Positions 3,339 through 32,000 of a stretch of 32,000 nt of DNA are shown here, in pieces. Every line of letters begins with the position of its first letter. Position 1 is the stretch's first letter. A program made the position numbers and the translations under genes. This DNA comes from Promethearchaeota archaeon (lineage in GTDB: Archaea > Asgardarchaeota > Heimdallarchaeia > Hodarchaeales > Hodarchaeaceae), in assembly GCA_048939725.1 (NCBI GenBank), contig JBHLPG010000016.1:299-32298 (forward strand), written 5' to 3'. The notes under the pieces are model-generated. The model worked only from the letters and a program-made list of their open reading frames with translations. It searched no databases and had not been told where the DNA came from.

Positions 3339-4086
3339 AGAAAAAACTCCTCTTATGCTTGAGGATGGTCGACGTTTAGATGGTCGTGGGCTTCACGACC
3401 TTAGGCCGATTGAAATGAGCACAGGAGTCCTTAACCGAGCTGATGGAAGTTGTTATCTTAAGTGGGGAAATAATAAAATATTATGTGCGGTCTATGGGCC
3501 ACGAGAACTACATCCAAAACATCTTGCTCAACCAGATAAAGCAATAGTTCGCGTTGAATATAGACTTGCAACGTTTTCTGTTGGAGAACGAAAAAGTCCA
3601 GCTCCCCGTCGTCGAGAGTATGAACTTAGTAAGATATTATCCGAATCAATTAATTCAGCCTTATTTTTAGAAAAATTTCCTACTGGAACAATAGATGTTT
3701 TCGTCACTGTTTTAGATGCAGATGGTGGTACTCGTTGTGCAGCACTAACTGCTGCTTCATTAGGACTAGCTGATGCAGGCATCCCGATGAGAGGGATTAT
3801 TACTGGTTGTGCAGTCGGGAAAGTTGATGGGAAAGTTGTGGTTGATCTTTCCGATGTTGAAGATAAAGAAGGAGAAGGAGATATGCCTGTTGCGATGATT
3901 CACAGCACAGGAGAGTTAACCTTACTTCAGTGTGACGGTAAATTCACACCAGAAGAGATTGAAGAAGGGCTTAAACTTTCAAGAACAGCCATTGGCCAGG
4001 TATATCAAATGCAGCGAAACGCTTTATTAAATAAATATTCCCAACTCGAAGAACCTCATGATAAACTTGACGATGAAGAAGAATAG
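3322..4086 (+). CDS. rrp41: Exosome complex exonuclease Rrp41 (RNase PH domain)
   Basis: RLDGRGLHDLRPIEMSTGVLNRADGSCYLKWGNNKILCAVYGPRE is the RNase PH family signature. The start is GTG 3322 or in-frame ATG 3331. Confidence 0.92.
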   Translation: MKKMNEEKTPLMLEDGRRLDGRGLHDLRPIEMSTGVLNRADGSCYLKWGNNKILCAVYGPRELHPKHLAQPDKAIVRVEYRLATFSVGERKSPAPRRREYELSKILSESINSALFLEKFPTGTIDVFVTVLDADGGTRCAALTAASLGLADAGIPMRGIITGCAVGKVDGKVVVDLSDVEDKEGEGDMPVAMIHSTGELTLLQCDGKFTPEEIEEGLKLSRTAIGQVYQMQRNALLNKYSQLEEPHDKLDDEEE

Positions 4087-11384: not shown

Positions 11385-11813
11385 GTGAGAAGAATGGCAA
11401 CTTATGGTCATGTAACAGTAGCTAAAGATGGTGAATCCTCTTCTGCAGAAACGATTCAAAAGATTTTAGATAGGTTAGGCGCTGTTCAAGGGGTAGTGCA
11501 AGCTCTCCTGGTGAGTGAAGAAGGCTTTCCAATAATGAGTGCACGGACAACACCGATCTCTGAGGAAGTTGAGACTTTGGTCTCCGCCATGGTTGCTGGA
11601 ATTGTCAGCACATTCGCTGGGGCGTGTGTTCAACTTAATTTAGGCAACAATATAGATTACATTCATGTTCAGACCCCACTCGGTTTGGGTTTAATTTCTA
11701 GCATAGGAAGTACAATTCTCGTGCTGATTACAAACCCCAAAGTTAAGCTCGGATTAATGCACTATCTAATTACCTCAACGAGGACTAAGATGTTAAAATT
11801 AAGAGATTTCTGA
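11385..11813 (+). CDS. Roadblock/LC7 (MglB-like) domain protein
   Basis: ILDRLGAVQGVVQALLVSEEGFPIMSAR and a later G..LISSIGSTILVLI block fit the Roadblock/LC7 alpha-beta pattern. The start is GTG 11385 or ATG 11394. Confidence 0.75.
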   Translation: MRRMATYGHVTVAKDGESSSAETIQKILDRLGAVQGVVQALLVSEEGFPIMSARTTPISEEVETLVSAMVAGIVSTFAGACVQLNLGNNIDYIHVQTPLGLGLISSIGSTILVLITNPKVKLGLMHYLITSTRTKMLKLRDF

Positions 11814-11917: not shown

Positions 11918-12415
11918 GTGATTCATAATAAAAGTGAATTTGGTGAGTTTTTATTGCCCCTTAAGGAGTCTGATTTAGTACTACGTCCTTTAGATTGTAA
12001 GGTTGGAGGAATGGAACCAATCTGTATTCTTGATCCTGATCATCCGTGCTGTGAGGATGTTCCTCGCGAAGAAATCATGTTTGAAGACGGTCAATTAGTT
12101 AAAAAGGGCAACTCTGCAATTGTATCCCTTAAACTTCATTTTAACGATCCAGTTGAAGTATTTATTTTTGACAGAATACGAAATGAGTTATGGCGGGACG
12201 CTGGATCTCGACTAAAAGTCATCCGAGAACCAGAGGAGGGATATCAAATCTCTTTTTTTCTCAATACCGAAATGGTGGCAAATATTGAACAGCGAGAGAC
12301 ATTAATTGACTATTGGGAGAAATTTAGCACAGAAATGCGTCGAGTCTTAACAGATGGAAAAATGGTCATTAATAAATATGTTCGGAGTAAAGCCGAAGCT
12401 TCTCGCCTCAGCTAG
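11918..12415 (+). CDS. Hypothetical protein (Cys cluster DHPCCED), no recognised family
   Basis: 165-aa ORF with coding-like composition. GTG start; the first in-frame ATG is at codon 32, so the 5' end is uncertain. Confidence 0.55.
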   Translation: MIHNKSEFGEFLLPLKESDLVLRPLDCKVGGMEPICILDPDHPCCEDVPREEIMFEDGQLVKKGNSAIVSLKLHFNDPVEVFIFDRIRNELWRDAGSRLKVIREPEEGYQISFFLNTEMVANIEQRETLIDYWEKFSTEMRRVLTDGKMVINKYVRSKAEASRLS

Positions 12416-12515: not shown

Positions 12516-12974
12516 TTAAGCTGCAGCGTCATAATCAGTACTGTATAAGGGATCCTGAACATCATCCCCAATTTTATACTCTACTTTTATCCTTAAAACC
12601 GCAGTGTCGACAGGTTCCGCAAAATTATAAGTTATATCAATTTTTGATTGACCAGTAGTTATAGTAAACGGGAAAGTTGTCGTACTGTTAGCATTAGTAA
12701 TAGGGATTTCATTTGCTTGAATTTCTATTTTTGTAATTGTTACTGTTTTTGATAATTCATTTGTTAAAGTGAATACTAATTTGTCATGTGTACCATTTTC
12801 ATCTATATCAGAAAATTTGACCGAGCTAAATTTCAATTCTCCTGATGATTCAATCATTGGTAGTACAATAACAAATAAAACCGCACCTGCGGCTACAGCA
12901 AGTCCAATCAGTAGAATTGCAGCCAGAATGGGGCTAACTGCACGTTTTTTTCGCAATAGTTTGTGGATTTTCAT
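12516..12974 (-). CDS. Archaeal type IV pilin-like protein (class III signal peptide, DUF1628-like)
   Basis: The N-terminus KKRAVSPILAAILLIGLAVAAGAVLFVIVL resembles the archaeal prepilin/archaellin-type signal (basic residues, small residue, then a hydrophobic helix). The mature part is Thr/Asn-rich. Confidence 0.75.
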   Translation of the reverse strand: MKIHKLLRKKRAVSPILAAILLIGLAVAAGAVLFVIVLPMIESSGELKFSSVKFSDIDENGTHDKLVFTLTNELSKTVTITKIEIQANEIPITNANSTTTFPFTITTGQSKIDITYNFAEPVDTAVLRIKVEYKIGDDVQDPLYSTDYDAAA

Positions 12975-13843: not shown

Positions 13844-15331
13844 ATGCATTGGCAAAAACGAATACATTCTAGAAGAACACTAATAGGATTATTTTTAATA
13901 GCTGGAACTGTTGTAATAAGTATCACTCTGCCAATGATGGGAAATATAGGAGATGGAGAACCAGAGAAAGGAACAATAGCTGTTTTTTTTGGCTCTACTA
14001 CGGATAAAAAATTAAGTGAAGAAGTTATCGAAGTTACAGGATTATCAGCACGGTATTACAATATTTCTAAAATCCAGAAGAAGAAATCATTTGAATTTGA
14101 GAATGAAAGCATTGCAGCAATTTGGTGGATCAATGAGCTCCCATTACCTATAGATTTAACATTCATGGGTGAATTTAGCGAATGGAGAGATGCAGACAAA
14201 GGACTATTTGTGCTGAATCGTTATTTTAATCAAACACCACTTCAATATTTGAAGAATTTTGGCATAACATCTTACACCCCAATAGTTTACCCTCTTAATG
14301 GATCATTTGTAAAACAAGAGCTGAATATTTTAGAAACCACAGACCCTCTTTTAACTTTAAACACAACAACTCTAGAAGTCATTTGTAGTACTGCATGGGT
14401 AGAGATTGATAATCAAACACAGATGTTGCTAGAGGTTAAAAAACCTGAAAATGAACCGTTTTTGAATAATTTGACCTCGGGTATTTGGATTGCAGACAGG
14501 CGTGTCATTATCGGCACTCTCTCGATCGAACTTCCTTTAGATATTGGAGAATCTCCAATCAATTTTCATGAGATGAATCAAATTACTTCTGAGGAGGTTA
14601 TTGATCTTCTAGGTCAGATCCTCCAATTAACAATACGGAGTTTACCTTCTGATAATGGCATTCAAATTCAGTTCGGAGATCTGAACCAAGTAATTGCGAT
14701 AAGTTTTGTTGTGTTTGCGAGTATTTTATCATTCTTTGTTTTGTTGAAAGTAGGGATTTTTTCCAGAATTCGTGATATTTTGGTGGGATTTTTCTTAAGT
14801 TTATTCTTATTTGTTGCCCATATTGCTTATTCACCTCAAAGAAGACGGATTAACGAGACTGAACTCCTAGAAAATGAATTACGGGGCCAGATTGTAGGTT
14901 TCCTGGAGGCGAAAGGAGAACAAGGAGCTCATTTACGAGAAATACAGCGAGAAGTGGGGTGTGGCATCTCCTCCCTATTGTGGCATTTACAGGCGTTAGA
15001 TGATTTCAATTTGATCACCCATGAGAAAATTGGCAAGTACCATATTTTTTACCTTGTGGGGGCAAAATCTGTTCAAATATCAGAGATTGCACTGGCTTTG
15101 AAAAGCGATGTAGCTAAGGAGCTCTGTCGTGTTTTAATAAGGAAAGGAAAACCTTTAACATTAACAAAAATTTCACAAGAGATTGATGTACACCATTCAA
15201 GTATTCAACATCATATTAAAAGATTGGAAGAGTTAGGTATAATAATTTCCTTAAAAGAAAAAAAGAGGTCAAAGTATACAATTGGTCCGAAGCGCTTATC
15301 TTGGTTAAAAAGTCATTTGGAGGTGGCTTGA
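13844..15331 (+). CDS. Membrane-anchored protein: N-terminal TM, about 250-aa extracytoplasmic domain, two TMs, two cytoplasmic winged-helix (ArsR-like) DNA-binding domains
   Basis: Hydrophobic segments lie at aa 12-31, 283-302 and 311-329. The ectodomain has several N-x-S/T sequons. wHTH-like blocks are LRGQIVGFLEAKGEQGAHLREIQREVGCGISSLLWHLQALDDFNLI and VAKELCRVLIRKGKPLTLTKISQEIDVHHSSIQHHIKRLEELGII. Confidence 0.7.
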   Translation: MHWQKRIHSRRTLIGLFLIAGTVVISITLPMMGNIGDGEPEKGTIAVFFGSTTDKKLSEEVIEVTGLSARYYNISKIQKKKSFEFENESIAAIWWINELPLPIDLTFMGEFSEWRDADKGLFVLNRYFNQTPLQYLKNFGITSYTPIVYPLNGSFVKQELNILETTDPLLTLNTTTLEVICSTAWVEIDNQTQMLLEVKKPENEPFLNNLTSGIWIADRRVIIGTLSIELPLDIGESPINFHEMNQITSEEVIDLLGQILQLTIRSLPSDNGIQIQFGDLNQVIAISFVVFASILSFFVLLKVGIFSRIRDILVGFFLSLFLFVAHIAYSPQRRRINETELLENELRGQIVGFLEAKGEQGAHLREIQREVGCGISSLLWHLQALDDFNLITHEKIGKYHIFYLVGAKSVQISEIALALKSDVAKELCRVLIRKGKPLTLTKISQEIDVHHSSIQHHIKRLEELGIIISLKEKKRSKYTIGPKRLSWLKSHLEVA

Positions 15332-16954
15332 TTGAGGATACGAAATCAATCGATTTGGAAAACATGGATTTTTTGTGTCTCCTTAATCTTGATCTCTATA
15401 GGCAGTAGTGTTTCCGCTGTGGAAAGTTCAGATTATCAACCACTTCTATTTGGTTCATTTTTTGATAGTAGTTTATTTGGGATTCAATTTAATTACAATC
15501 CCAATGCTCCAGAGGATCAAAAAATCCTTTTAGTCACTGATTTAGTTAATCAAACTTCTCTAGCTACTCCTACTAATTATCACAATATCATTAGCCTAGT
15601 TGGACATGAGGATAAGGGGATAAAATCTGCATTCCTAGCATTGGAAAGATTTAACCGCACGATAATTGATTTAATCAGTTGGCAAGCCATCGTCCCGTTT
15701 ATTAAGTATTTACATCATTTTTCGCTCCCTAGCGGGGAGGATGTGGTCTTAGGGCAAGATTTTCTTGGAATTGCATTAAAGATCAAAGAAAGTGAGATTT
15801 ATCCAGCAGAGTATCAACTTGGTTATGCAAATGTTCCATTGACCTTTCTGGAACTTTTGATACCTGATGGTTATAATTCCTCTTTAACCTCCTCTGTAGG
15901 GACCTCTATCAGGATCCAAGAAAGCATTAACGAGCTTCAAATCGATTTTACATATTCTAATTTAACCTTTCTTTTCCAAGGGAGTAGTATAGATTTAAAT
16001 ACTCTATCTGGACTAAGAATAGTTGAGAATGTGATCCTAGCTCAATTTGACAAAATTACATTCTCGATCTTTTTTAGAAAATACTCACATCATGAAATAT
16101 CAGGCGTTGAAACTATTTCTAAAGTGTCCATAGGTACCGTTATGAATTTAATCATTAATGAGGAGCTTCCAACGAGTGTAAGTTGGATAAATGCAATTGA
16201 CTATGAGATCGAAGAAAACTTTCAAGATTTAGAGTTTCCTATTCATGAAGTATTCTCGTGGTATCAAGGCTCGGATATAAAACGGAGATTAGAGCTTTTT
16301 AAAGATATTTCATTTTCTTTTATAACAAGTCAAAACGTTGGGATTTTAAGCAATACCCAACCGAAAGAAGATATTCAAATTGTCATTGATGGGAACAATA
16401 GGACACCAAATGAGCTTGAGAAAAAGGATTTTCCAGTAAAAGAAGAAATTACATTAATTCATAACATGTCTCAAGTATTTTCAACGAAGGTAAAAGGGCG
16501 AAACTTCGCAATCCAACATGAAAATGTCCCAGACAAAATTTCCTTAATTCCGATGGAAACTCAAGTAATTGCATTAAATCAACACGATGGATTTGCAGGT
16601 AATCGGCTATTCATACAAGAAACATCGTTACTAAAAGAATTGGTTGCTGAATGTGTGAAATGTTTCATACCTGAGATGTCTGCATTGGGAACTGGCGAAA
16701 TAATTAACGCTGCAGGATTAGATCTTACTTCAGCGCAATATATTCAAGATCTTCAAATAAACAATTGGTCTGGCTTACAGTTCACTTTTAATTTACTACA
16801 ATTCGCAGTGAAAACAGCCCCCTCAGCCCCTATGAAATCTAGTTCTGGTAAAATAACACCTATACCAGCATTTCACTCTTTTTTAGGTGTCTTAATTGTT
16901 TATGTGGTTTTAAAGAAAGGAAAATCAATAAAAAGGAATTATAACAAAAACTAG
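15332..16954 (+). CDS. Secreted/surface protein with signal peptide and C-terminal TM anchor; paralog of the next gene
   Basis: The TTG start immediately abuts the upstream TGA. The signal peptide is WIFCVSLILISIGSSVSAVES. The C-terminus PIPAFHSFLGVLIVYVVLKKGK is a TM followed by a basic tail. It shares motifs with the 17324 protein at identical offsets. Confidence 0.7.
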   Translation: MRIRNQSIWKTWIFCVSLILISIGSSVSAVESSDYQPLLFGSFFDSSLFGIQFNYNPNAPEDQKILLVTDLVNQTSLATPTNYHNIISLVGHEDKGIKSAFLALERFNRTIIDLISWQAIVPFIKYLHHFSLPSGEDVVLGQDFLGIALKIKESEIYPAEYQLGYANVPLTFLELLIPDGYNSSLTSSVGTSIRIQESINELQIDFTYSNLTFLFQGSSIDLNTLSGLRIVENVILAQFDKITFSIFFRKYSHHEISGVETISKVSIGTVMNLIINEELPTSVSWINAIDYEIEENFQDLEFPIHEVFSWYQGSDIKRRLELFKDISFSFITSQNVGILSNTQPKEDIQIVIDGNNRTPNELEKKDFPVKEEITLIHNMSQVFSTKVKGRNFAIQHENVPDKISLIPMETQVIALNQHDGFAGNRLFIQETSLLKELVAECVKCFIPEMSALGTGEIINAAGLDLTSAQYIQDLQINNWSGLQFTFNLLQFAVKTAPSAPMKSSSGKITPIPAFHSFLGVLIVYVVLKKGKSIKRNYNKN

Positions 16955-17323: not shown

Positions 17324-19135
17324 ATGAAAAAGAAACTTCTTATGGGGATATCAGTAATAACCTTACTGACGCTCCTTATCTTTACTTCTCCAGCACAAGC
17401 TGTCGATGTTGCAGATTTTGCTGGCCATAATTTTGCAGAAGAATATTTTGCGATTGAAGTGGATCTTGTCGGTGACGGGACTAGTGTCTTTGACCCTGAT
17501 CCTGAAAATCCTGATTTAATTAACGATCTTATAGGTACAGCGACACCAACAGGAGATTCTAATCCTTTAGAAGATGAACAATTCTACCTCGCATATATGA
17601 ATATGTCAGGTATTGAGACTGCTTTCTCTGCGTTAGAGAAATTTGAGCATACGATAACCCTTCAAGATCTATTAACAGATGATGTATATACAACGATCGA
17701 TACTCTTGGCACACCAGACATGAAGACAGCTATAAACACCCCAATCTCTCATATCAATGCTACTGCTCCCTTTCAACAGTTAGTTCAACATTATACAACC
17801 TCTGAAGAACATGGTTTCAAAGATGTCTTTGTTACGAATAACTTCATGGCTCTAATAGCTTACGAAACAGGAACAGGCGATGATCCTAATATTATGGATA
17901 AAAATGACCGGCTTTATATAGGCTATACTTTTTGTCTCCAAAATTTAACCGATGCTATTAACGATATCATTGCACCAACCTATGAACTGGGACATTTTGA
18001 TTATGAAGCTGATTTTGAAACAACAGCTACAGGTTTCGAATTTGGCATCACTTATACGAATTTATTTGTATTATGGCAAGCTATTGATATTGCACCAAAA
18101 GGTGTTGATGTCACTGGTGCTGGTGAACAATATATCAGAGACGATACAAATGGTATTATATATGGTGGACACATTGCTGCAGCTTCAGTCCTTGATTATC
18201 TTGCATTTAATTATGTGTTTGAAACAACCGAATTTACAGGTGCAAACCGATATATCGAAGGAACAGTTACAACTCATTATGATATTGGTGAAACCAACTT
18301 CCTTGTAACTCGTGACAATGCAGCCTATATCGCAGATCATGCTGATAATTGGACTCACAATCCATTCACAGAAACCCCTACGTATACTTTAGATATTCCT
18401 GATGCTATTGCTGATGCTAATCTCGGACTTCTCGGCCTTCCTGATATTCCATCGTCTGTAACAATATCATTACCAGAGTTAGCATTCTATTTCGATGATG
18501 ACGCTAAAACACGTATAAAAATGCATGGTGGTTTTGGATTGACAGTAGCAACTGCAACAACCACTTTTGGGGTTGATGTTGTCGAACCAGAATACGAACT
18601 AGTAGGAGAGGATATCAACCTCAATATGGGTGGAAAAACTTACTTCTTTACCGAATTTACAGGTAAAAATACGTACAAACTTAAAGGACTAGAGGATCTT
18701 TGGGGTATCGACCCTAATCTTGATCGGCCTGTATATATCCTTCCTTTCGATCCAAGTGGCTGGACTATTACTGGTGTAGCTAAAGCATATTTTATAGTTG
18801 AATTCGCGTTGGCTTATGGTTTTACATTGTTCATGGCTAAACAATTAGGAGAATTTATGTCAATGTCTTCGAGTGCCACAGCTTACGTCTCAGTAGACTT
18901 ACTTTACTTTACATTCACTGAATTTCCAGAATGGTATGGTGGAGAAATTATCCACGATCCTGCATATTCTGCTGTTGCTGCGATGGCTGCTGAACCCCCA
19001 GAATCAAGCTCGATACCAGAAGAGTCAAGCGAAGAACCAGAACAACCAAGTGATGGAGTTCCAGGATTCGAGATACTCTCCGTGTTACTAGGCATTCTCC
19101 CTCTATATGCGTTGTATCGAAAACGACGACACTAA
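17324..19135 (+). CDS. Secreted acidic surface protein with Sec signal peptide and PGF-CTERM-like anchor
   Basis: MKKKLLMGISVITLLTLLIFTSPAQA|VD is a classic signal peptide. A C-terminal S/E/P-rich linker is followed by PGFEILSVLLGILPLYALYRKRRH. Confidence 0.8.
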   Translation: MKKKLLMGISVITLLTLLIFTSPAQAVDVADFAGHNFAEEYFAIEVDLVGDGTSVFDPDPENPDLINDLIGTATPTGDSNPLEDEQFYLAYMNMSGIETAFSALEKFEHTITLQDLLTDDVYTTIDTLGTPDMKTAINTPISHINATAPFQQLVQHYTTSEEHGFKDVFVTNNFMALIAYETGTGDDPNIMDKNDRLYIGYTFCLQNLTDAINDIIAPTYELGHFDYEADFETTATGFEFGITYTNLFVLWQAIDIAPKGVDVTGAGEQYIRDDTNGIIYGGHIAAASVLDYLAFNYVFETTEFTGANRYIEGTVTTHYDIGETNFLVTRDNAAYIADHADNWTHNPFTETPTYTLDIPDAIADANLGLLGLPDIPSSVTISLPELAFYFDDDAKTRIKMHGGFGLTVATATTTFGVDVVEPEYELVGEDINLNMGGKTYFFTEFTGKNTYKLKGLEDLWGIDPNLDRPVYILPFDPSGWTITGVAKAYFIVEFALAYGFTLFMAKQLGEFMSMSSSATAYVSVDLLYFTFTEFPEWYGGEIIHDPAYSAVAAMAAEPPESSSIPEESSEEPEQPSDGVPGFEILSVLLGILPLYALYRKRRH

Positions 19136-19447: not shown

Positions 19448-22069
19448 ATGGCTTTAATAGACCCATTATTAGACCCAGTTAACCTTATGGTTTCTTTACT
19501 TTTAACATTCTCTCCCATAATTATTTTATTTATACCATATCTGTTCACCCGACGTAAGGACGAGAACTTTTTTGCTGTTATCTTTAATCGGGCTTATTTC
19601 GGGTTCATTGTTTTTTATTTGGCGTACTTTATTTTTTCTAGCATTTTAAACGCTGTTGTTCCAAATCCAAGCCAGTATATTGATCAAGAATACTATCCTG
19701 TTACAGGCACAAGTGAATATAGTACCGTTTGGGATTCAGCTGCAGTCGATGAGGAAACAGTGAATAACTTTTTAACATCTATTGGATTGCCAGGAATACC
19801 TTTATTAGTTAAATATATGTTCCAGCACTTTATCAACTCGATTGTTAATTTCTTATACTATCCCATCATAATTCTAGCCTTTGTTTTTGGTATTTCACCT
19901 ATAATTTCGCTGATAATATTGTTATACCAAACTTGGGGAGAAAAACGGAATGAGAGAAAGCCATTAAAACGATTAATAAAGCAAAATGAAGAGGAAATCA
20001 AATTCCTGCGAATTAAACAGAAAAATGCCAATGAAACGGAGATTCCAGAGATCAGTCAAGAGATTACCACACTAGAGGATGATATTAATAACTTACAGCG
20101 TCAATTAACCGAGCTACGAAGCGTAACTCAACGATTACAAGAGATACAATTTGAGATGGAAGCTTCACCATTCCAAGAAATTACAAAAAGGGTGAAAGAA
20201 AAGGAATGGGGCAACGAAAGAGAATTACTGAAAGTACTTATTGCTATCCTCCCCATTACTCTATTTCTTCTTATGACAATTCTTCAGTTGCTTGGAGAAA
20301 CTGAAAATCCAAGCTTACTTCAAGGGACTGCAATGGGGCACTTTCTAGAAATATTCTTTGCCTATATTGCTTCAATAGTATTTAGCGTTTATCTTATAAA
20401 AGCAAGTCGCTTATCACGGAGGGGTAAATTCTTAGGTAATCAACTTTACATTGCAATGGTTCAAAGTCTATCAACTGTAGGGGCTTTTATGTCAGGTCTC
20501 GCAGTTATTCTATTTTTAGTTCAGTATTTTGACCAGATCTTTGTGGTTTCTTATTTTGTAGTATACTTCATCATGGTGTCAATATTTTTTGTACTCTTTT
20601 TGGATATTTTCGAACCATTCTCGATTTACTTACTAATCAAACTCATTGAGACATTTAAAAATTTCAAAATGGCTGTTAAACGAATTGATTCTACTAATGT
20701 TGCAAAATCTGCCGCAATGGGGGTAGTTATTGGTTTTCTACTAGCAGTTGGATTTCTTGTTTATCGTGTTATTGTTGGAGGTTTGTTTCCCCGAAATATA
20801 GACACTGTTCAATATAGTACTTTCTTTTGGTTTACTTTGAATTACATAAGCTTTTTTTTAAGTGCAGCGCTAATTTTGTTCATAAGAAGATGGAATTGGA
20901 GTATTTTTACCACCACATTGATTGCTTATCTATCGATATCCTCAGTCAGCATTTTTCTCTTTTTATGGTATGACGAAGCTCTCGCTCTCTATAGTTTAAT
21001 TCCATTTTTAGACTTAGATAATCCAATTTTCAGAATTGGTACTGTTCCGCTAATACCTCCATTTATCACACTCACTTCAGGACTTGCTGGAGGCGTAGAA
21101 CGGTTACAATGGTACACCAATATTTGGAAAGAGGGGATATTTGGTGATATTCACTTTATTATTCCTGAATTACAACGGATTCCTGTAATCTGGAAAGGAG
21201 AGGGGGGTATTTTTCTAGGACTTTTATCTATTCCATATAATCTTCTACACCCATTTGCTATAATATTAACGTACGGTAGCATTCTATTTTTAGTAAGACG
21301 GAATTTTCATATCAGAACACAGAAAAGCGAATTAGAAGGAGAAGAGAAAGTTCAATATAAGTCAATATATTCTGATATGGGCCGACTCCCAAATTTAAAT
21401 GAATTAGAAAGGAAATCAGATATAATTTTAATTGGAGCGACTCCTGTTGACAACCCAGAAATAAACCAGAAGATAGAGGAAGCTTGGACAGAGATTGAAA
21501 ATGGACAACAGTTGCGTGAAGTAATTACTAGAGGAATAGAACCATTTAATGAGTTAACGAAGAAAAGTGGGTTAACTTCGGCCGAGATCCATCAAATCTT
21601 AGATGATTTAACATTTGATATTGCCATTCCATTCAATCAAGTATTGACAGTCCTACATAGAGAATTTTCCTACTCATTTGAGGAGGTTACTATTGACTCA
21701 CTTCATGTAATGATGCTCGATGGGCGGGCAGTACTATCTCACACCTTTGCGATGGAATCACAAGTTGAACCAGCGTTGGTAGCTGGTCTTTTCTCTGCCA
21801 TCACTTCTTTTGCGAAGGAAGCTGTACGAAGTGAACAGTTGCTAAAGACCATAGATCACGGTGATGTCGTTCTAACCATTGAATATGCGAAATGGGTCTT
21901 TGCTGCAATATTTGCAGATAGTACATCCACGGAATTACGGAGAAAATTAAGTGAATTCTTAGCTGATTTTGAAGAAAGACATGCAAAAACCCTACCTATA
22001 TGGTTAGGTGATCTGGAAGTATTTACAGGTGACATCCAAATAATAGATGATACTTTCTCTACAATTTAA
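19448..22069 (+). CDS. Large polytopic membrane protein with internal coiled coil and C-terminal cytoplasmic longin/roadblock-like module
   Basis: 873 aa with more than 10 hydrophobic helices. A charged heptad-like segment lies at about aa 170-250. The soluble C-terminal domain includes LHVMMLDGRAVLSHTF...EPALVAGLFSAITSFAKEA...VVLTIEYAKWVFAAIFAD. No family was recognised. Confidence 0.75.
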   Translation: MALIDPLLDPVNLMVSLLLTFSPIIILFIPYLFTRRKDENFFAVIFNRAYFGFIVFYLAYFIFSSILNAVVPNPSQYIDQEYYPVTGTSEYSTVWDSAAVDEETVNNFLTSIGLPGIPLLVKYMFQHFINSIVNFLYYPIIILAFVFGISPIISLIILLYQTWGEKRNERKPLKRLIKQNEEEIKFLRIKQKNANETEIPEISQEITTLEDDINNLQRQLTELRSVTQRLQEIQFEMEASPFQEITKRVKEKEWGNERELLKVLIAILPITLFLLMTILQLLGETENPSLLQGTAMGHFLEIFFAYIASIVFSVYLIKASRLSRRGKFLGNQLYIAMVQSLSTVGAFMSGLAVILFLVQYFDQIFVVSYFVVYFIMVSIFFVLFLDIFEPFSIYLLIKLIETFKNFKMAVKRIDSTNVAKSAAMGVVIGFLLAVGFLVYRVIVGGLFPRNIDTVQYSTFFWFTLNYISFFLSAALILFIRRWNWSIFTTTLIAYLSISSVSIFLFLWYDEALALYSLIPFLDLDNPIFRIGTVPLIPPFITLTSGLAGGVERLQWYTNIWKEGIFGDIHFIIPELQRIPVIWKGEGGIFLGLLSIPYNLLHPFAIILTYGSILFLVRRNFHIRTQKSELEGEEKVQYKSIYSDMGRLPNLNELERKSDIILIGATPVDNPEINQKIEEAWTEIENGQQLREVITRGIEPFNELTKKSGLTSAEIHQILDDLTFDIAIPFNQVLTVLHREFSYSFEEVTIDSLHVMMLDGRAVLSHTFAMESQVEPALVAGLFSAITSFAKEAVRSEQLLKTIDHGDVVLTIEYAKWVFAAIFADSTSTELRRKLSEFLADFEERHAKTLPIWLGDLEVFTGDIQIIDDTFSTI

Positions 22070-22113
22070 CCTATCCCCCTTGCCTTCCAAAATTTTCATA
22101 CTTGAAAAGTCCT

Positions 22114-24753
22114 TTATTTCGCTTCTCCAATTATAAAAAGATAATCGTCAGGGCTTAACTTAGCTATTGAACAAATAATTATTGCCAGATCTGATTTCAG
22201 TATAATCTTGATCCCATTTAAGGGATTCTTTGCTTTCTGATGGAGTAGAAATCCCTTTTGAGTCATTAAAGTGGCCCATTGCTTTAAGTCTGCTTCTGTG
22301 TATGTCAAAGTCCTGATTGAAGTGGATTTAATTCCCACTTCAGATTCAAAGATTAAATCTCGTTCTAAGATGTCAGATATGAGATTTGAAGAGAGTGAAG
22401 TTTCCTGTAAGTCGTTTATTAACTCTATAAACCATGTGATGTCTTCCTCTCCTATCTCTATCGTCTCGTCCTCAGAAATGAAATCTGACATTTCTAGTCG
22501 AGGAGGAGCTTGATCTTCAGAAATCTCTTTAAATTCCTGCTGCTCCTCGGAAAGAGGTGTTGACACAAAATGTGGTAACATACGATTTTGGTCAGCGAGT
22601 ATAAGAACCCCATCACGAAGATATGAAATAATAACCTCGGTTATTTTTCGATAGCTATAATCTGAATCTAGAAGGCACTGATTAACAATTTCTATTGCGA
22701 AAAGGCCTTCTGATAATGCAAGTTGATCTATTTGCTGATTGATGATTTCATATAATATCGGATGAGAAATTTCCTTTTTAAAAGATCGATTTAGTTGTAA
22801 AGGAGAAATCAAAGACAATCCTAGATAACGATCAAGAATTTTTATGGTTGGAGAGAATTCATCAATTATTCCAACAAACTCTTCAAGATTTGAAAGGAAC
22901 TTAATTTCGAATTGATAAGAAAAATTTCTAATTCGTCTCTTAAAATCATTTATGTACTTCGGAGTACGATCTAGGATGACTGCAGTGACAGAATTGACTC
23001 CTTCTACTGTGATGATTTTAAAAGCTTTATCGCCGATCTCTTCAGTAAATATACGCAAAATTGAGCGTTCTTTAACGAGATCTGACTTAAGCTCACTAAA
23101 AAGTCCCGAAATTGCGCTCAGAAATCCTGAAACAAGTTGAGGGTCGATTTTTAACATTGTTATTCCAAGTTCGAAAATGCAAATTCCAGTTCTTTTGTGA
23201 AGGATTAAAATGTGATTACACGCAAGCAGATTCGTTAAATCTTTGTAGCTGAAAGGTTCAATCTCAATTGGAGACACAATTTCATCATGTTCAATAACAG
23301 AGGACTCTAATTTAGGTGTATATAATTCCTCCTCTGAGGAATCCGAAATAATCCCAGTTCCATTGTACCTGGGGATAGAACTAGGCATTTCATCCTCTTG
23401 AGGATCTATATGTTTTGATAAACGAGGACGAACGTGAATTTTTATTGGCCCATGACTTCCTAATCCAACAATTAACGCTTCTCCCCTTACTAGATGAGGC
23501 AAATTCGATACTACATCAGTACTAATCCCTTCCATCAACCGAATTTTATTGAGGTCCTTATCAGATCTTATCCTTAATGCAATTAGTGTGTTCATATTCG
23601 CAATGATGTTATCTGGGAAATCCCCAGGCCGTTGGGAGATTAGAATTTCGTAAAGCCCAAATTTTCGCCCTTCACGAGCAATTCTTGATAATATTTCATT
23701 TGTAGTTGAGAAACGATGTGCTTCTTCGACAATAAGCACGACTTCTTGCTCTTTTGTTATTTTACCATGAATTTTCTTTTCAAATACTTGTGTTAGGAGT
23801 TCATTGACAAAAATATTTCGCTTTTTCTCGTCAGTAAACTGATCCAAACGAATAATAGAGATTTGACCAGGAGAAATGAGAGTTTCTAAGTCAAGTTCTT
23901 TATCAAATAATTCCAATTTTTTCAGGGAATGGATTTTTGAAACAAGTGTTTCTCGAGTTGAAGAATGAAAATCAGATGATTCAATCACTGAAATCAGATC
24001 ATCTAATAAAATAGGTTTTTTCATTAAATTGGACAATGAATTTTCTTGTGCAGCTGTTAGATCTATTAATCTTCGTATTCGTGGTAAGGTGAATTCTTTT
24101 CCAAGACCTAGAGAGTCCTTTTCATAGATTAAGATGTTATCGCGGAATCCAACTGGGGAATAACCTTCGTAATCTAGTTTTTCAATCTCTTCTCCATCAT
24201 TTGGTTGAGCTAACCCCCAATATTCGTTATGAATATCAAAGAGTAATACTGTAGCTGACTTAAACTTCATAATTATTTCTTCTAATAAGACACCAACACT
24301 GTACGATTTTCCTGCGCCAGTACTCGCAACGCAAAGAACGTGTCGTTCAATGAATTTGGGGGATAAAAGAAAAGGATCAGTATGATCTTTATAGGTCACA
24401 ACATCTCCAAGGTATATTCCTTGATCACCCCTGTGAGAGATTATCTTAGAAACAAGACCTTTAGGTGGATGCTGAATCTGTGCTTGTGAAGAAATCGGAA
24501 ATCTGCATGGAGAAAGTGAAAAATCATCTAAATTAATCTCCCCAAGAATAGTGGCTATTCCTCTTATATCTTCTCCCTTGGCTTGAGTTAACTTTGCAAC
24601 TTGAGCTAAATATTGTCTTTCAGGAGTTTTTTCCGAATCTGTGATCAAAACAAAATCCTGTTCATAAATGGTGGCTTTGGTTTCATCTATATAAAAAGAG
24701 ATTTCCCCTGTTGAAGATTTTATTACTTCCACTGCGTGCAGCAACCATTTCAA
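22114..24753 (-). CDS. HerA/FtsK-superfamily (DUF87-type) P-loop ATPase with a roughly 430-aa C-terminal extension
   Basis: Walker A is CVASTGAGKSYSVG (aa 141-154) and Walker B is VVLIVEEAHRF (aa 338-348). The HerA-typical EGRKFGLYEILISQRPGDFPDNIIANMNTLIALRI is present. An N-terminal barrel-like region precedes the P-loop. C-terminal aa 513-620 carry a longin-like module. Confidence 0.8.
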   Translation of the reverse strand: MKWLLHAVEVIKSSTGEISFYIDETKATIYEQDFVLITDSEKTPERQYLAQVAKLTQAKGEDIRGIATILGEINLDDFSLSPCRFPISSQAQIQHPPKGLVSKIISHRGDQGIYLGDVVTYKDHTDPFLLSPKFIERHVLCVASTGAGKSYSVGVLLEEIIMKFKSATVLLFDIHNEYWGLAQPNDGEEIEKLDYEGYSPVGFRDNILIYEKDSLGLGKEFTLPRIRRLIDLTAAQENSLSNLMKKPILLDDLISVIESSDFHSSTRETLVSKIHSLKKLELFDKELDLETLISPGQISIIRLDQFTDEKKRNIFVNELLTQVFEKKIHGKITKEQEVVLIVEEAHRFSTTNEILSRIAREGRKFGLYEILISQRPGDFPDNIIANMNTLIALRIRSDKDLNKIRLMEGISTDVVSNLPHLVRGEALIVGLGSHGPIKIHVRPRLSKHIDPQEDEMPSSIPRYNGTGIISDSSEEELYTPKLESSVIEHDEIVSPIEIEPFSYKDLTNLLACNHILILHKRTGICIFELGITMLKIDPQLVSGFLSAISGLFSELKSDLVKERSILRIFTEEIGDKAFKIITVEGVNSVTAVILDRTPKYINDFKRRIRNFSYQFEIKFLSNLEEFVGIIDEFSPTIKILDRYLGLSLISPLQLNRSFKKEISHPILYEIINQQIDQLALSEGLFAIEIVNQCLLDSDYSYRKITEVIISYLRDGVLILADQNRMLPHFVSTPLSEEQQEFKEISEDQAPPRLEMSDFISEDETIEIGEEDITWFIELINDLQETSLSSNLISDILERDLIFESEVGIKSTSIRTLTYTEADLKQWATLMTQKGFLLHQKAKNPLNGIKIILKSDLAIIICSIAKLSPDDYLFIIGEAK

Positions 24754-27884: not shown

Positions 27885-28796
27885 ATGGTATTCTCTCCAA
27901 TAGCTCAAAGTTATTTTGACGAATTCCCATTTCATCGAAGTTCTCCACGAAAACCATCGTCAGGTTTTTTTTTCTTATCTCACGCACATTCTGACCATAC
28001 ATCTGGTCTCCGATCAAGTCTCTCTGATCCTGATGTCACTATTGTATGTTCTAAAGAAACTGCAGCTGTTGTCGGGGTTCTCTATGGAATTCCCCAAGAA
28101 AAATGTCTAGAAGTAAGATCAAATCAATCCCTAGACTTTGATAATTTCACTGTTCATGCAATAGACGCTAATCATTGCGTTGGTAGTTTATCATATATAA
28201 TAGAATCAAAAGATGGATTAAAAGAAGTGTATACAGGTGATTTTAGGCTAGGAACTCCGATTTTGGACGAACTCAGCTTACTTGAAGGAGCTAGCCATCT
28301 CTGGGTAGACTATACTTACGGGAAAGATCCCATATTTAGATTTCCTTCAAGAGAGAAAATGATTTCAGAAATTATTACTTTAATACTTACAGAAGGAAAC
28401 TATCCAGCAAGAGATGTCTGGATATCATCCTATCAAATAGGGAAAGAAAAGCTCCTTAAAACAATCAGTGACGCATTGAAGGTGAAAATATGGGCACCAG
28501 ATCTTAAAGTGAAAACCTACAAAGAAATTGGAGGAGAATGGGATATTTTTACCACTGATAGAGATTCAGGGGTATTTGTTGGGAGTCGTCGAATGGTTGA
28601 AAGATTGCATGGAATAGATAAAGAATATCATGATAAGATGTCTGAAGCTCTAAGAATCTCTCCAACGGGGTGGGCCTCACGGTTATACCAAAAGCATTTA
28701 GATGTGAATTTCTTTCCTTATTCTGATCACTGTTCATATTCTGAGGTTCATAAATTCATTGAGCTAGTTAACGCAGGAAGAATCGTAAAAATCTAA
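27885..28796 (+). CDS. SNM1/Pso2/Artemis-like metallo-beta-lactamase / beta-CASP DNA repair nuclease
   Basis: The HxHxDH motif is LSHAHSDHTSGL. A series of blocks follows that I recognise from eukaryotic SNM1/DCLRE1: IDANHCVGS (DANHCPG), YTGDFR (TGDFR), WVDYTY (LDTTY), YQIGKEKLL (IGKEK), ISPTGW (RPTGW), PYSDHCSYSEVHKFI (PYSEHSS..E...F). Confidence 0.8.
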   Translation: MVFSPIAQSYFDEFPFHRSSPRKPSSGFFFLSHAHSDHTSGLRSSLSDPDVTIVCSKETAAVVGVLYGIPQEKCLEVRSNQSLDFDNFTVHAIDANHCVGSLSYIIESKDGLKEVYTGDFRLGTPILDELSLLEGASHLWVDYTYGKDPIFRFPSREKMISEIITLILTEGNYPARDVWISSYQIGKEKLLKTISDALKVKIWAPDLKVKTYKEIGGEWDIFTTDRDSGVFVGSRRMVERLHGIDKEYHDKMSEALRISPTGWASRLYQKHLDVNFFPYSDHCSYSEVHKFIELVNAGRIVKI

Positions 28797-28878: not shown

Positions 28879-31074
28879 TTGAGCGTAAATAATCTTCGAG
28901 ATATACGGGGAATTGGCCCATCAGTGGAAGAAAAATTGAAAGCATATTTTAAAGGCGAAACAAACGCTCTCATGGCATTACGAGAATCCCGAATAGCTGA
29001 AATATCCTCTATCGAAGGGATTGGCGAAAGATTTGCTCTGAGTATGTGTCGTAACCTTCATTTTCAGGAAACTGGGGAACAGATTCAGAATTTCTTGAAA
29101 ACAGAAGACGCAATCCTACTTTATAATAGAGTTATAGATATCATATCAAAATTTGCGAACACTGCGTATTCTAAATCAAAATTATATTTATTCTTCCCAT
29201 TGCCAATTTCAGCGATAACTAAGATTAAGGACAGACAAAAGACAACCCGACGTGCCCAGAAGTTAGTATCTTTGATTAAAAAATCTCCTCATTCTTTTAA
29301 AGAGTATGATAAACTCCTCAGGAACCTTTCACCTCTCAAAGAAAATATTGATCATTTAGATACAGCATCACGAGTCGTCGCGACTGCAGATAAGCAGATT
29401 TATGAAGAATTATCAACGAACGAGATTGGGAGATATTGTGAGGTCATTTTTATCGATGAAATTGAACAAATCTCTGGATTCATTGAAGGCTACGATGAAA
29501 TTGTTTGGATCGGTTCAGATATTTTGCTTGAAGAAGGGGTCTCGAACGCAATAACTATTTCAGAGGCCCAACGTAATGATATGATTAGGATAATCCCAGA
29601 AAAAACTCTTAGTTTATTTGCTAGCAATAAAACAATTCTCGAATCAATCTCTGGAATAGCAAAACTGTTGAAGACTATTTCAACATTAGAATTAACAGTA
29701 TATATTGGGGATTTAGATCTCGATATGCTTATAGAAATGGGTAAAGAACTTTTAAATCTCGAGGAATCAGGTGAACCAACAGAACTATTCAACGAGGAAT
29801 ATTCACGTCTTTTAATGGCCGATCAGAGCTTTGATAACCACTTAAGCGAAGTATTGTTATCATTAAACGAAAATCTAGAGAAAACGCTTCAAGACACTAC
29901 GGTCCATTTAGAGGGTGAAAAAATACTTGCTCTTCTCAAAGGTATGGCAGAGGATGATCATGGATACTCTAGGGATAGTGGAAAGGCAGAATTACGTGAA
30001 TATCTTGATGATGAGCTATATTTAGCAGTTGAAGAGATTGTAACCAAAGCCGAGGAACAGCTCGTTACAAAATTAAATCTAAGAAGTGAAGAAACTGATT
30101 ATCTTACAGGAATTTTCCCAAGAGAACTTCAGTATCCCGTTGATCCTGTTGAAGATGTAGTTACTAGGATAAAAACCTATTTACGACAATCACGAGCTAT
30201 TAAAGCATTTGAACTCAAAATTACATTAGCTAAATCTCTTAAGCGATTCGAAGACGTTGCTAAAAGTGCATTAAATTATATGTTTGAGTTGGATTTTCTT
30301 TTAATGATTGGTAAATTTGCTCGTTCTCATGATTTAGTTTTACCTCAACTTGTTGAAGGCCAGGGCACAGGGCTCCTTGTGGAAGAAAGTCGAAATCTTT
30401 TTCTAATTCAACAAGAGCGCAGGGGGCTTTTAAAAGTTGAACCAGTCTCATATGCACTAGGAGAAATTGGTAAGATTGCAGGAAGTGTTGATGGTGAACG
30501 GATAATTCTTCTGTCAGGTGCAAATAGTGGTGGAAAGACCACATTAATTGTCACTGTCGCAGTATTAGTCATTCTTGGACAAATAGGTCTCCCAATTCCG
30601 TGTAAACGAGCTCAACTCGGAGGTTTCAATGAATTACACTATTACCGTAAAGCTTCTGGACAAATGGATGCTGGTGCTTTTGAGACCACGTTACGAACAC
30701 TATCCCAAATGATAATGAGTCCTAATTCTCGATTGGTATTAGCTGATGAAATGGAAAGTATGTCTGAGCCAGGCGCATCCGCTCGGGTGATTGGAGCCTT
30801 TTTAGATTTATTAGGACGATCATCAAACTCTGTCGGAGTTTTTGTGACCCATCTAGCGCAATTAATTGCGGAGTATACTAAGGAGAAGCTGCGCATCGAT
30901 GGAATAGAAGCCAAAGGGCTGTCAAAAAATCTTGAACTTCTAGTGAATAGAACACCACTTTACTATCAATATGCAAAATCAACTCCTGAATTGATTGTAA
31001 GAAGATTGCAACAAATATCTAAAGGTGAGGAAAAAGAAATTTACTCCTATATATTAGAAAGATTTGAATCTTAA
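28879..31074 (+). CDS. MutS-related ABC-type ATPase (MutS domain V-like) with N-terminal tandem helix-hairpin-helix motifs
   Basis: Walker A is LLSGANSGGKTT (MutS: GPNMGGKST). Walker B is LVLADEMES (MutS: LvllDElGrGT). FVTHLAQL corresponds to MutS faTHy.eL. The N-terminal HhH motifs are LRDIRGIGPSVEEKL and ISSIEGIGERFA. TTG is the only possible in-frame start. Confidence 0.8.
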   Translation: MSVNNLRDIRGIGPSVEEKLKAYFKGETNALMALRESRIAEISSIEGIGERFALSMCRNLHFQETGEQIQNFLKTEDAILLYNRVIDIISKFANTAYSKSKLYLFFPLPISAITKIKDRQKTTRRAQKLVSLIKKSPHSFKEYDKLLRNLSPLKENIDHLDTASRVVATADKQIYEELSTNEIGRYCEVIFIDEIEQISGFIEGYDEIVWIGSDILLEEGVSNAITISEAQRNDMIRIIPEKTLSLFASNKTILESISGIAKLLKTISTLELTVYIGDLDLDMLIEMGKELLNLEESGEPTELFNEEYSRLLMADQSFDNHLSEVLLSLNENLEKTLQDTTVHLEGEKILALLKGMAEDDHGYSRDSGKAELREYLDDELYLAVEEIVTKAEEQLVTKLNLRSEETDYLTGIFPRELQYPVDPVEDVVTRIKTYLRQSRAIKAFELKITLAKSLKRFEDVAKSALNYMFELDFLLMIGKFARSHDLVLPQLVEGQGTGLLVEESRNLFLIQQERRGLLKVEPVSYALGEIGKIAGSVDGERIILLSGANSGGKTTLIVTVAVLVILGQIGLPIPCKRAQLGGFNELHYYRKASGQMDAGAFETTLRTLSQMIMSPNSRLVLADEMESMSEPGASARVIGAFLDLLGRSSNSVGVFVTHLAQLIAEYTKEKLRIDGIEAKGLSKNLELLVNRTPLYYQYAKSTPELIVRRLQQISKGEEKEIYSYILERFES

Positions 31075-31091
31075 GCATTTGAATCTTAAGC
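31062..31091. repeat. Perfect 15-bp tandem duplication (ATTTGAATCTTAAGC x2, plus a partial third ATT) spanning the MutS-like stop codon
   Basis: Read directly: 31062-31076 is identical to 31077-31091. Each copy carries an in-frame TAA for the MutS-like frame and a TGA in the downstream ORF frame. Confidence 0.9.
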
Positions 31092-32000
31092 ATTCCTGAA
31101 GCTCCTCCATTTGATTTTCAAGCCGAATTAGATGCATTAGAAGAAGAACAAGAAAGTATTTCAGATGTCTCACTTCTAAGATCGTTAGAAAAGGCACAGC
31201 AGACTCAGCTGACAGCCAATATTAATCTCGCTAAACAAAAACTAAACAATGAAAAAGTTCGGTCTATTAAAAACACTCAGAAAGCTTTTCCTAAGAAGAT
31301 TTCAAAGAAAATACATAAACCTCTGCAAATTAATCAGCAATCATTGGATAATTTCACTCGTTCCAAGACGATTAATCATACAGAAGATGATATAGTAGCA
31401 CTGAAAACCCTAGACCAGCGTATCACACAATTTAATCTCAGAATGAAATTCAACGAAACTTTTAAACAACCTACTCCTGATGATTTTCTTACAACATTTC
31501 AAGAACTCTATGATGAAGGAGTTTCAAAGGGAAAAACTTTTGTAAGGAACTCAGATACTGATTATTTTTATCTGGAAGATTACACAGAGTTAGCGAACGA
31601 TATTAAACTCCATTCAGTTTTATTCGATCCTAATGCTCCGAGTCGTGTTCCTATAGACCAACCATTAATCGCGCTAGTTGGGGGAGGTCCTCGGGATTTA
31701 GTAGCTCTGAAAGACAAGCTGCTGTTTTTAAAAACTGGTAGTACACTTAAGGGGGAATTTTTTTTAATAAAAGGTAAAAATTTTGGTGGAAAAAAGAGTT
31801 GGGCATACCTTCTTCAGCATTCAAACCCTAAAAGTGTAAGAGACCATTCTAAAACTTTATTTAATGGTATGACTGAACCTGTAAATGATAAAAAGATCTT
31901 TCGTAAGTTAAGAAACATAAATGGACTTTCTGACAAAAAATACAACAGTTTAAGCTTTTTTAAGTTGAAACATTCTTTTAATGATGTCGAAAGAGTAATT
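31083..32000 (+). CDS. Hypothetical protein, 3'-truncated by the window edge; start codon unresolved
   Basis: My own translation of the frame opening at 31083 is stop-free to the window end (IPEAPPFDFQAELDALEEEQES...LIALVGGGPRDLVALKDKLLFLKTGSTLKGEFFLIKGKNFGGKK...). The first canonical in-frame starts are TTG 31344 and ATG 31443. It is not in the ORF track because it runs off the edge. Confidence 0.5.
   Translation, partial: MLSIPEAPPFDFQAELDALEEEQESISDVSLLRSLEKAQQTQLTANINLAKQKLNNEKVRSIKNTQKAFPKKISKKIHKPLQINQQSLDNFTRSKTINHTEDDIVALKTLDQRITQFNLRMKFNETFKQPTPDDFLTTFQELYDEGVSKGKTFVRNSDTDYFYLEDYTELANDIKLHSVLFDPNAPSRVPIDQPLIALVGGGPRDLVALKDKLLFLKTGSTLKGEFFLIKGKNFGGKKSWAYLLQHSNPKSVRDHSKTLFNGMTEPVNDKKIFRKLRNINGLSDKKYNSLSFFKLKHSFNDVERVI

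Follow-up and report, generated by a model that had tools for sequence, protein, structure and literature searches.

A divergent HerA-clade ATPase and a polytopic membrane protein share a longin-like module within a five-gene cluster of Hodarchaeales

The subject of this analysis is a 32,000-nucleotide stretch of DNA (hereafter, the window) from a Promethearchaeota archaeon of the Hodarchaeaceae (GenBank assembly GCA_048939725.1, contig JBHLPG010000016.1, forward-strand positions 299 to 32,298). Two of its genes, which meet tail to tail, encode a polytopic membrane protein (D) and a P-loop ATPase of the HerA clade (E), and homologous domains of predicted longin-like fold were found at the C-terminus of D and behind the motor core of E. 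Together with three genes upstream of D (A, B and C), the pair forms a five-gene cluster that is specific, among the genomes and metagenomes scanned, to Hodarchaeales, a Heimdall-group Asgard lineage. A functional link between the five genes is probable, and direct contact between D and E through their modules is proposed more tentatively. A first-pass annotation, made from the letters of this DNA without database searches, had described D and E as a possible two-component membrane translocase; its open reading frames (ORFs), the gap of 44 bp between the convergent stop codons and its module positions (aa 513-620 of E and aa 749-845 of D) were all reproduced here.

Homology and predicted fold of the module

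Pairwise and profile comparisons identify the D and E modules as homologous. BLASTP of full-length D against full-length E gave one significant high-scoring segment pair (D 772-867 / E 535-641, 25% identity, E = 2e-4). A profile built from the D-family modules alone retrieved E at E = 9.8e-8, and one built from the E-family modules alone retrieved D at E = 4.1e-7, the next-best of the 92 window ORFs having E ≥ 0.015. The joint alignment of D- and E-family modules contains 15 invariant columns spread over its full length, and D also matches the module of E7, the divergent E homologue of locus L007 described below (E = 4e-4). It could be supposed that the resemblance is due to chance or composition, since the pairwise identity is low and the single-pair E-value modest, but this is effectively refuted by the joint alignment, the E7 match and the reciprocal profiles, and the identical predicted topology of the two modules speaks against it as well; its probability is negligible. 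The shared segment seen in the first pass is thus real, and its bounds are longer than had been stated (approximately aa 505-645 in E and 733-870 in D).

In the AlphaFold2 (AF2) models, the E module is predicted to have the layout β-β-α-β-β-β-α (predicted local distance difference test, pLDDT, 68; predicted template modelling score, pTM, 0.63; from a shallow alignment of 15 sequences), and the D module the layout β-β-β-α-β-β-β-α-α, i.e., one extra N-terminal strand; the β-β-α-β-β-β-α pattern proposed earlier recurs in both. In Foldseek searches with the E module, the best template modelling scores (TM-scores) were obtained for AP2/AP5 sigma (0.53-0.54), SRX (0.45) and Mon1-Ccz1, followed at lower rank by LAMTOR, MglB and Asgard Roadblock proteins, every match having E > 1e-3 and a query TM-score of at most 0.54 for a model of pLDDT 68. 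With full-length D, the top 50 PDB matches all fell on the C-terminal module and were all longin/roadblock proteins, including AP sigma, AP mu-N, Sec22b, TRAPP Bet5/Trs23, zeta/delta-COP and Mon1-Ccz1. The best longin matches had target TM-scores of 0.58-0.69 and root-mean-square deviations of 3.3-3.8 Å, with probabilities of 0.97-1.00 (mostly 1.00) and all E-values ≥ 0.035. The two segments are therefore modelled with the same longin-like topology and not with unrelated folds.

Neither module model has an N-terminal helix before the first strand, and this, together with the order of the elements, fits longin better than roadblock in the models. The expectation of a longin/SRX/roadblock fold is supported by the models for its longin-like part and not for Roadblock/LC7: the modules gave no match to Pfam Robl_LC7 (PF03259), and hhalign against the window's own Roadblock/LC7 protein returned a probability of 1%, that is, no relationship. 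No match was found either to the longin-related families of Pfam at E ≤ 10, and a module profile run against PDB sequences returned noise only. The term "longin-like" is a statement about the predicted fold and not about membership of a curated family.

Topology of the membrane protein

The full-length AF2 model of D (33 homologs; pLDDT 82, pTM 0.81) and hydropathy agree on 11 transmembrane helices in an N-out/C-in arrangement. Since 27 lysine and arginine residues lie on inside loops and 4 on outside loops in this arrangement, the D module is modelled as cytoplasmic; the cytoplasmic C-terminus assumed in the first-pass annotation is thus upheld by the model, hydropathy and the positive-inside count together. 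The model also places a long coiled-coil hairpin (aa 159-259) and the tail of D (aa 613-873) in the cytoplasm, and a β-rich segment and a helical segment separate the last transmembrane helix from the module. The module is the most conserved part of D, its AGLFSAITSF motif being nearly invariant. The D family is found Asgard-wide, including an ortholog in Prometheoarchaeum syntrophicum (DSAG12_01663).

No Pfam, NCBIfam or PHROG match of D was found above a curated cutoff or at E ≤ 0.001, the sub-threshold matches being those of Pfam (E ≥ 0.044) and PADLOC PDC-M62B (E = 0.003). The entry PF28006.1 is listed in the precomputed annotation of three of 66 D homologs (P0025, P0033 and P0034). Two further assignments of D were considered and not retained. 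An R-SNARE-like reading, suggested by the combination of longin, coiled coil and transmembrane segment, was rejected because the domain order differs, and the V-SNARE/Syntaxin matches in D homologs (E = 0.1-0.3) are typical coiled-coil noise. A role as the sorting enzyme for Heimdall-CTERM proteins, considered since C and D are the tightest gene pair of the cluster, is not supported by a transmembrane body without invariant cysteine or histidine, and the occurrence of D in Lokiarchaeia would also count against it if the signal is not used there.

Relation of E to known HerA-type ATPases

By its sequence, E is a catalytically intact and highly divergent HerA-clade ATPase and not a canonical repair HerA. 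The HerA core named in the first pass was confirmed: the Pfam DUF87/HerA central domain (PF01935) spans aa 114-323 with E = 6.7e-19 and 69.3 bits against a gathering cutoff of 23.2, and the closest PDB entries by sequence are HerA chains (up to E = 4.8e-24), among them Sulfolobus HerA 4d2i, PDB FtsK chains matching only at E = 0.06-0.1. Walker A (STGAGKSY), Walker B (VEEAHRF), EGRK and QRP are invariant across 14 E orthologs, so E is very probably active as an enzyme; the arginine-finger region is intact, and the corresponding motifs of E7 are GSGKT, LFLDE and GRK.

This core is shared with the HerA-NurA end-resection machine. At the same time, E is far from the canonical HerA equivalog cutoffs of NCBIfam (NF040819 and NF040937; 118 bits against 970 and 79 against 800), carries an extension of 430 aa with a longin-like domain, and is coupled to membrane and surface genes, not to Mre11, Rad50 or NurA. 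None of these three gave a match among the scanned window ORFs of at least 100 aa, a set that does not include the ORF at the window end (31083-32000), and with this limit the earlier remark that NurA is not adjacent was borne out; nor was a nuclease, Sir2 or other defence effector found among the same ORFs. E likewise stayed far below the NCBIfam cutoffs for anti-phage HerA (Sir2-HerA, DUF4297-HerA and similar systems), with 74 and 65 bits against 850 and 800. The PADLOC HerA models match E at 1.6e-37, these being generic HerA matches only, and PADLOC found no effector among the neighbours of E. The score was 66 bits against a cutoff of 600 for the Ced ATPase model (NF053655) and 17.9 bits against 24 for Pfam FtsK_SpoIIIE. 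A mobile-element or viral origin of E was rejected, no relatives having been found on IMG/VR viral contigs.

Beyond the module, the extension of E (aa 646-879) is conserved over its whole length when the E and E7 types are compared. It has no Pfam or PDB sequence match, and a profile search with the whole extension against PDB sequences returned noise only. NCBIfam, PHROGs and PADLOC likewise yielded no domain for this part of E or for the modules of D and E. The TTG start of E (24733-24753) is uncertain: ortholog alignments begin at aa 4-8, and the real start may lie three to seven codons downstream.

Conservation of the gene cluster

Species-representative genomes were scanned with the E extension, which yielded 14 E-type loci, all of the Heimdall group; an alignment-based metagenome scan added three E-type loci and one unrelated module protein (L030). 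D lies directly downstream of E and convergent with it in all 13 informative species-level loci and in the three from metagenomes (16 in total), which confirms the conserved convergent pair that had been anticipated. In the fourteenth species-level locus (L016, CP070760.1), D is interrupted by a run of N at approximately 11540-11730, and the apparent case of the D module alone next to E (partial protein P0085) is this assembly gap. A, B and C are present in every E-type locus where the contig reaches far enough, so the unit comprises five genes and not the two components first suggested. C stands directly upstream of D in the E-type loci reaching that far, in L007 and in L006/L025, and L024 retains only a C-terminal fragment of C at the contig end.

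The decisive locus for linkage is L007, since all five genes are kept there despite 22-38% identity (A 34%; B 22%, E = 1.7e-4), a new order and new flanks. The genes are arranged as C D> <E <B <A, against A B C D> <E in E-type loci, D and E still being convergent. No further E7-type cluster was found in the alignment-based metagenome scan, and a scan with E7 as a single query found nothing. In L006, L024 and L025, the gene directly after the C-D pair is GT-C-like, and its ortholog in L007 (41% identity) comes after A. These positions indicate that E-B-A either abuts the 3' end of D as a complete block or is missing altogether. The co-occurrence expected by the first-pass annotation is seen in one direction in these loci: E-type loci and L007 carry D beside E, but D is also found without an adjacent E, in Lokiarchaeia (L004/L008), in several Heimdall-group lineages and in the loci L006, L024, L025, L026 and L009.

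As for the products, the wHTH (winged helix-turn-helix) cassette of A is of the HTH_20/HVO_0163 type (Pfam HTH_20, 6e-11, and HTH_HVO_0163_N; NCBIfam ArsR/SmtB, 1e-10). C carries the NCBIfam Heimdall-CTERM signal (NF045529) at aa 579-603 with 28.6 bits against a cutoff of 24. Apart from this signal, B and C have no match in Pfam, NCBIfam, PADLOC or PHROGs above a curated cutoff or at E ≤ 0.001, and no pilin or VirB2-like component is present in the cluster. The N-termini of B and C are weakly similar (aa 15-111, E = 0.001). The identity of C between genomes is 32-66%, compared with 64-88% for D, as expected of an exposed protein.

Two neighbourhoods of D deserve a separate description. In a Hodarchaeales locus (L001, 8557-13708), frame changes divide both E (587 + 243 aa) and D (560 + 177 aa), and D is separated from C by an IS605 OrfB/TnpB gene; the double split could reflect joint decay of the pair or assembly errors. 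In Lokiarchaeia (L004/L005 and L008), the surroundings of D are conserved between two genomes and consist of a Zn-ribbon protein, an ATP-binding cassette ATPase, an FtsX-like permease, a small protein, a histone deacetylase and D. The small protein has a weak profilin match in L004/L005 and no Pfam match in L008.

Occurrence of the module in other Asgard proteins

An exhaustive profile search returned 4,042 module cluster representatives at E ≤ 1e-3, 796 of them at E ≤ 1e-10, and the module is thus not private to the D/E pair. The named carriers belong to Lokiarchaeia, Helarchaeota, Atabeyarchaeia and Heimdall/Hodarchaeales, with one cluster from Methanomassiliicoccales. Among the best 150 representatives, 38 are of the D family. 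A transmembrane helix lies upstream of the module in 78 of the other 108 (median gap 28 residues), at a distance of at most 60 residues in 68 of these 78; many of the remaining 30 are short (approximately 100-280 aa) and may be fragments. The accompanying domains are Ig-like, MG2 and CARDB ectodomains, KaiC-like ATPases and wHTH domains. As far as these domain arrangements indicate, the module usually lies next to the membrane, on the cytoplasmic side of receptor-like surface proteins, and its fusion to a soluble HerA is an unusual case. The E module scores higher against such receptor-like proteins (E = 1e-15 to 1e-10) than against the D-family modules; because of this, the relation between D and E is best described at the level of sequence as sharing of a module family and not of an exclusive domain pair.

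Several individual carriers may be mentioned. The receptor-like proteins P0169 and P0170 (from Atabeyarchaeia and a Joint Genome Institute metagenome) consist of an Ig-like ectodomain, a transmembrane helix, the module and a KaiC/DUF835-type ATPase, and thus represent a second combination of the module with a P-loop ATPase, with the membrane anchor on the same chain. The L030 protein (805-2193, + strand) is a soluble protein of 462 aa with a Zn-ribbon-like N-terminus, the module, an E-type helical domain and TPR-like helices, so that the unit of module and helical domain of E recurs in it; a Ras/Rab-like small GTPase is encoded approximately 1 kb downstream (3158-3676, + strand), with one opposite-strand gene between them. 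In the Helarchaeota protein P0247, a tandem wHTH of the A type is fused to the module (E = 1e-11).

The abundance of such domains in Asgard archaea has been described earlier. Their genomes contain many longin/roadblock genes and fusions (PMC10933270; bioRxiv 2020.10.19.343400), with 41 predicted longin domains in Lokiarchaeum (PMC10933270) and approximately 130 Asgard clusters of orthologous genes (asCOGs) of the longin/roadblock superfamily affected by widespread domain shuffling (bioRxiv 2020.10.19.343400). Roadblock/longin proteins form dimeric platforms, and these dimers serve as platforms for GTPases (PMC10933270). HerA is not mentioned in PMC10933270 or in bioRxiv 2020.10.19.343400.

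Gene neighbourhood in the window

The coordinates of the five genes and of the domains of D and E are collected in Table 1. Protein D is 100% identical to the GenBank protein ACFFDC_03535 from a metagenome-assembled genome, and all close relatives bear labels such as Hodarchaeales or Heimdallarchaeota. The genes lie in a stable chromosomal core and not in a variable island. The GC content is 33-42%, and housekeeping genes for eIF5A, the proteasome alpha subunit, SBDS, exosome subunits, CDC48, thioredoxin reductase, PTPS, MptE and a MutS-like protein are found in the window, together with the Asgard signature genes Roadblock/LC7 and ARPC4-like.

The stand-alone Roadblock/LC7 gene (11385-11813, + strand; Pfam 6e-09) adjoins the ARPC4-like gene (11918-12415, + strand; ARP2/3 subunit, 7e-09), two Asgard "eukaryotic signature" genes side by side, and an ARPC4 gene is likewise located upstream of gene A in B3_Heim (L003). 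Just upstream of A, an ORF of 152 aa (12516-12974, - strand) scores 21 bits for the N-terminus of archaeal type IV pilins, below the cutoff of 25.2, and is absent from the L007 cluster. On the other side, a DRMBL/metallo-beta-lactamase protein (27885-28796, + strand) is followed by a 731-aa protein (28879-31074, + strand) with N-terminal helix-hairpin-helix motifs and a MutS domain V ATPase, and this gene pair is syntenic in L001, L002 and L003.

Table 1 Genes of the cluster and domains of D and E in the window (nucleotide positions count from the first letter of the window)
Feature	Position	Strand	Description and basis
Gene A	13844-15331	+	495 aa; N-terminal transmembrane helix, ectodomain, more transmembrane helices, cytoplasmic tandem wHTH
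Gene B	15332-16954	+	540 aa; signal-peptide-like N-terminus, C-terminal transmembrane anchor
Gene C	17324-19135	+	603-aa surface protein; signal-peptide-like N-terminus, Heimdall-CTERM
Gene D	19448-22069	+	873-aa membrane protein
Longin-like module of D, aa 733-870	21644-22057	+	conservation, AF2 β-β-β-α-β-β-β-α-α, PDB longin/roadblock matches
Gene E	22114-24753	-	879-aa HerA-clade P-loop ATPase with C-terminal extension of about 430 aa
HerA/DUF87 ATPase core of E, aa 114-445	23419-24414	-	Walker A, Walker B, EGRK, QRP; Pfam DUF87; PDB HerA matches
Longin-like module of E, aa 505-645	22819-23241	-	BLASTP and profile homology to D module; AF2 topology
Rest of E extension, aa 646-879	22117-22818	-	helical domain, acidic linker, C-terminal α/β domain of about 100 aa

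Discussion

The explanation favoured here, held as a whole at somewhat less than even confidence, is that the five genes encode an envelope apparatus in which E is docked to D via longin-like domains. E would form the ring typical of HerA ATPases, and its longin-like domains would pair with the longin-like tail of D and thereby keep the ring at the inner membrane face. Hydrolysis of ATP would power the movement or remodelling of a polymer at D, with B and C as the outer components of the apparatus. Among possible polymers DNA is put first, with a rather low probability of its own, because E is of the HerA clade and A is a DNA-binding partner. Docking is the most economical arrangement since a soluble ring ATPase bears an otherwise juxtamembrane domain, the fold characteristically dimerises, and D adjoins with the same domain on its cytoplasmic tail; direct contact of D and E through the modules is accordingly offered as a tentative proposal that could well prove wrong. 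The fusion of an A-type wHTH to the module in P0247 and the joint splitting of D and E in L001 were also counted in favour of the explanation as a whole. Functional linkage of all five genes, for which L007 is decisive, is the considerably safer statement and may be taken as likely.

Several findings weigh against the docking part of this explanation. The sequences alone do not lead from a shared module to docking: the size of the module family is not that of a pair-specific device, the E module is closer to other proteins than to D, and the D module is conserved without E, all of which leaves room for some other common partner of both modules. As the module is nearly invariant in the loci where D has no adjacent E, it must have an E-independent function. 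The 16 E-type loci represent one clade with broad synteny, which also covers the flanking thioredoxin reductase, PTPS, MptE and MutS-like genes, and taken alone they are weak evidence. The convergent orientation of D and E means that they are not co-transcribed. Finally, the transmembrane body of D had no structural match in the PDB by Foldseek and resembles no known channel. Of the interpretation given in the first-pass annotation, then, the HerA core, the homologous longin-like module, the cytoplasmic tail and the conserved convergent pair stand; the inference of docking is weakened by the wide distribution of the module and by D without E, and the unit is larger than two genes.

Several of these findings would be accommodated if the module were a common adaptor, i.e., a general Asgard juxtamembrane signalling or dimerisation domain used independently by D and E with no direct contact between them. 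A third factor, for example a small GTPase of the sort bound by longin/roadblock platforms in eukaryotes and Myxococcus, or other module-bearing receptors would then be bound, and the five genes might still share a pathway. We consider this less probable than docking and on the whole unlikely, even though the 4,042 family members, the usual position of the module below a membrane helix and Ig, MG2 or CARDB ectodomains, its occasional KaiC ATPase or wHTH fusions, the affinity of the E module to receptor-like proteins and the conservation of the D module where E is absent all agree with it. The known role of longin/roadblock dimers as GTPase platforms (PMC10933270) and the small GTPase genes near D or module genes in L004, L006, L025 and L030 point in the same direction, but these genes are inconsistently positioned, and no GTPase gene is present in the five-gene cluster or among the window ORFs scanned. 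It weighs further against a meaning of such neighbours that Asgard genomes hold many small GTPase genes in any case. An adaptor would also leave unexplained why E is placed tail to tail with D in both cluster arrangements.

It is also conceivable that D and E are neighbours by descent only, E being a soluble HerA-type motor of DNA repair or defence with a regulatory longin-like domain and the synteny being inherited. The restriction of E-type loci to one Heimdall/Hodarchaeales group with equally syntenic housekeeping flanks, the convergence of the two genes, the PADLOC HerA matches and the occurrence of D alone elsewhere could all be read in this way. Against this, L007 keeps the convergent pair together with A, B and C despite changed order, flanks and sequence, and E, B and A come and go as one block beside D. 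Moreover, no nuclease, Sir2, other defence effector or NurA was found among the window ORFs scanned, the scores of E lie far below the canonical and anti-phage HerA cutoffs, and the cluster is located in a stable chromosomal core, no viral or mobile relatives having been found on IMG/VR contigs. Inheritance without function in common therefore appears quite improbable.

Membrane-coupled translocases of the HerA/FtsK/VirB4 type include crenarchaeal Ced DNA import, conjugative type IV secretion and FtsK/SpoIIIE. The concept proposed for D and E would be the same, namely a ring ATPase of the superfamily acting at a polytopic membrane protein with surface components. A single FtsK polypeptide carries both membrane domain and motor; in the case of D and E the two would be joined non-covalently. 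In comparison with systems of the Ced/Ted type, there is no recognisable CedA/VirB6-like partner in D and there are no pilin-like subunits in searches of Pfam, NCBIfam, PADLOC and PHROGs. With the eukaryotic longin platforms (AP sigma/mu-N, Sec22b/Ykt6, TRAPP Bet5/Trs23, Mon1-Ccz1 and SRX), which provide the top PDB matches, the modules share the order β-β-α-β-β-β-α(-α). They differ in having no sequence match to Pfam longin/roadblock, with Foldseek E-values all above 1e-3, and in having no evident GTPase partner, and both the HerA fusion and the C-terminal placement on a protein with 11 transmembrane helices are unreported in the literature searched. A precedent for docking via the longin fold is SRX, which docks soluble SR-alpha to membrane-bound SR-beta.

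Literature searches returned no description of an architecture combining HerA, a longin-like module and a membrane protein, in agreement with the first-pass view of it as undescribed. The parts are of known kinds, a HerA-clade ATPase and the Asgard longin-like expansion; what seems not to have been described before is their fusion, the pairing with a membrane protein found Asgard-wide, and the cluster of five genes.

More broadly, and as a speculation with a small chance of being correct, the longin-like module could be a general plug by which Asgard membrane proteins recruit cytosolic machines. On D, and on receptor-like proteins that number in the hundreds and have Ig/MG2 ectodomains, it would be positioned approximately 15-35 residues below the membrane, and the same module would be fused to motors and effectors, such as HerA here and KaiC-like ATPases and wHTH regulators elsewhere. 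The nearest folds are those of AP sigma/mu, Sec22b and TRAPP, and pairing of module with module, if true, would represent a prokaryotic forerunner of the longin-based recruitment of adaptors and coats to membrane-protein tails. D-E would then be a split, FtsK-like membrane translocase assembled via the module.

Motors of the HerA type have known roles in DNA repair and, as found more recently, in phage defence, and relatives coupled to the membrane, such as FtsK, VirB4 and Ced, transport DNA at or across it. A motor of the HerA clade whose gene is tied to those of membrane and surface proteins would amount to an envelope machine of a new kind, and this in the archaeal lineage closest to eukaryotes. 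Independently of this, a single longin-like sequence family of approximately 4,000 representatives, mostly from Asgard archaea and typically membrane-adjacent, provides a testable handle on the longin/roadblock expansion of these organisms, and the presence of a D ortholog (DSAG12_01663) in the cultured Prometheoarchaeum syntrophicum makes part of the question experimentally approachable.

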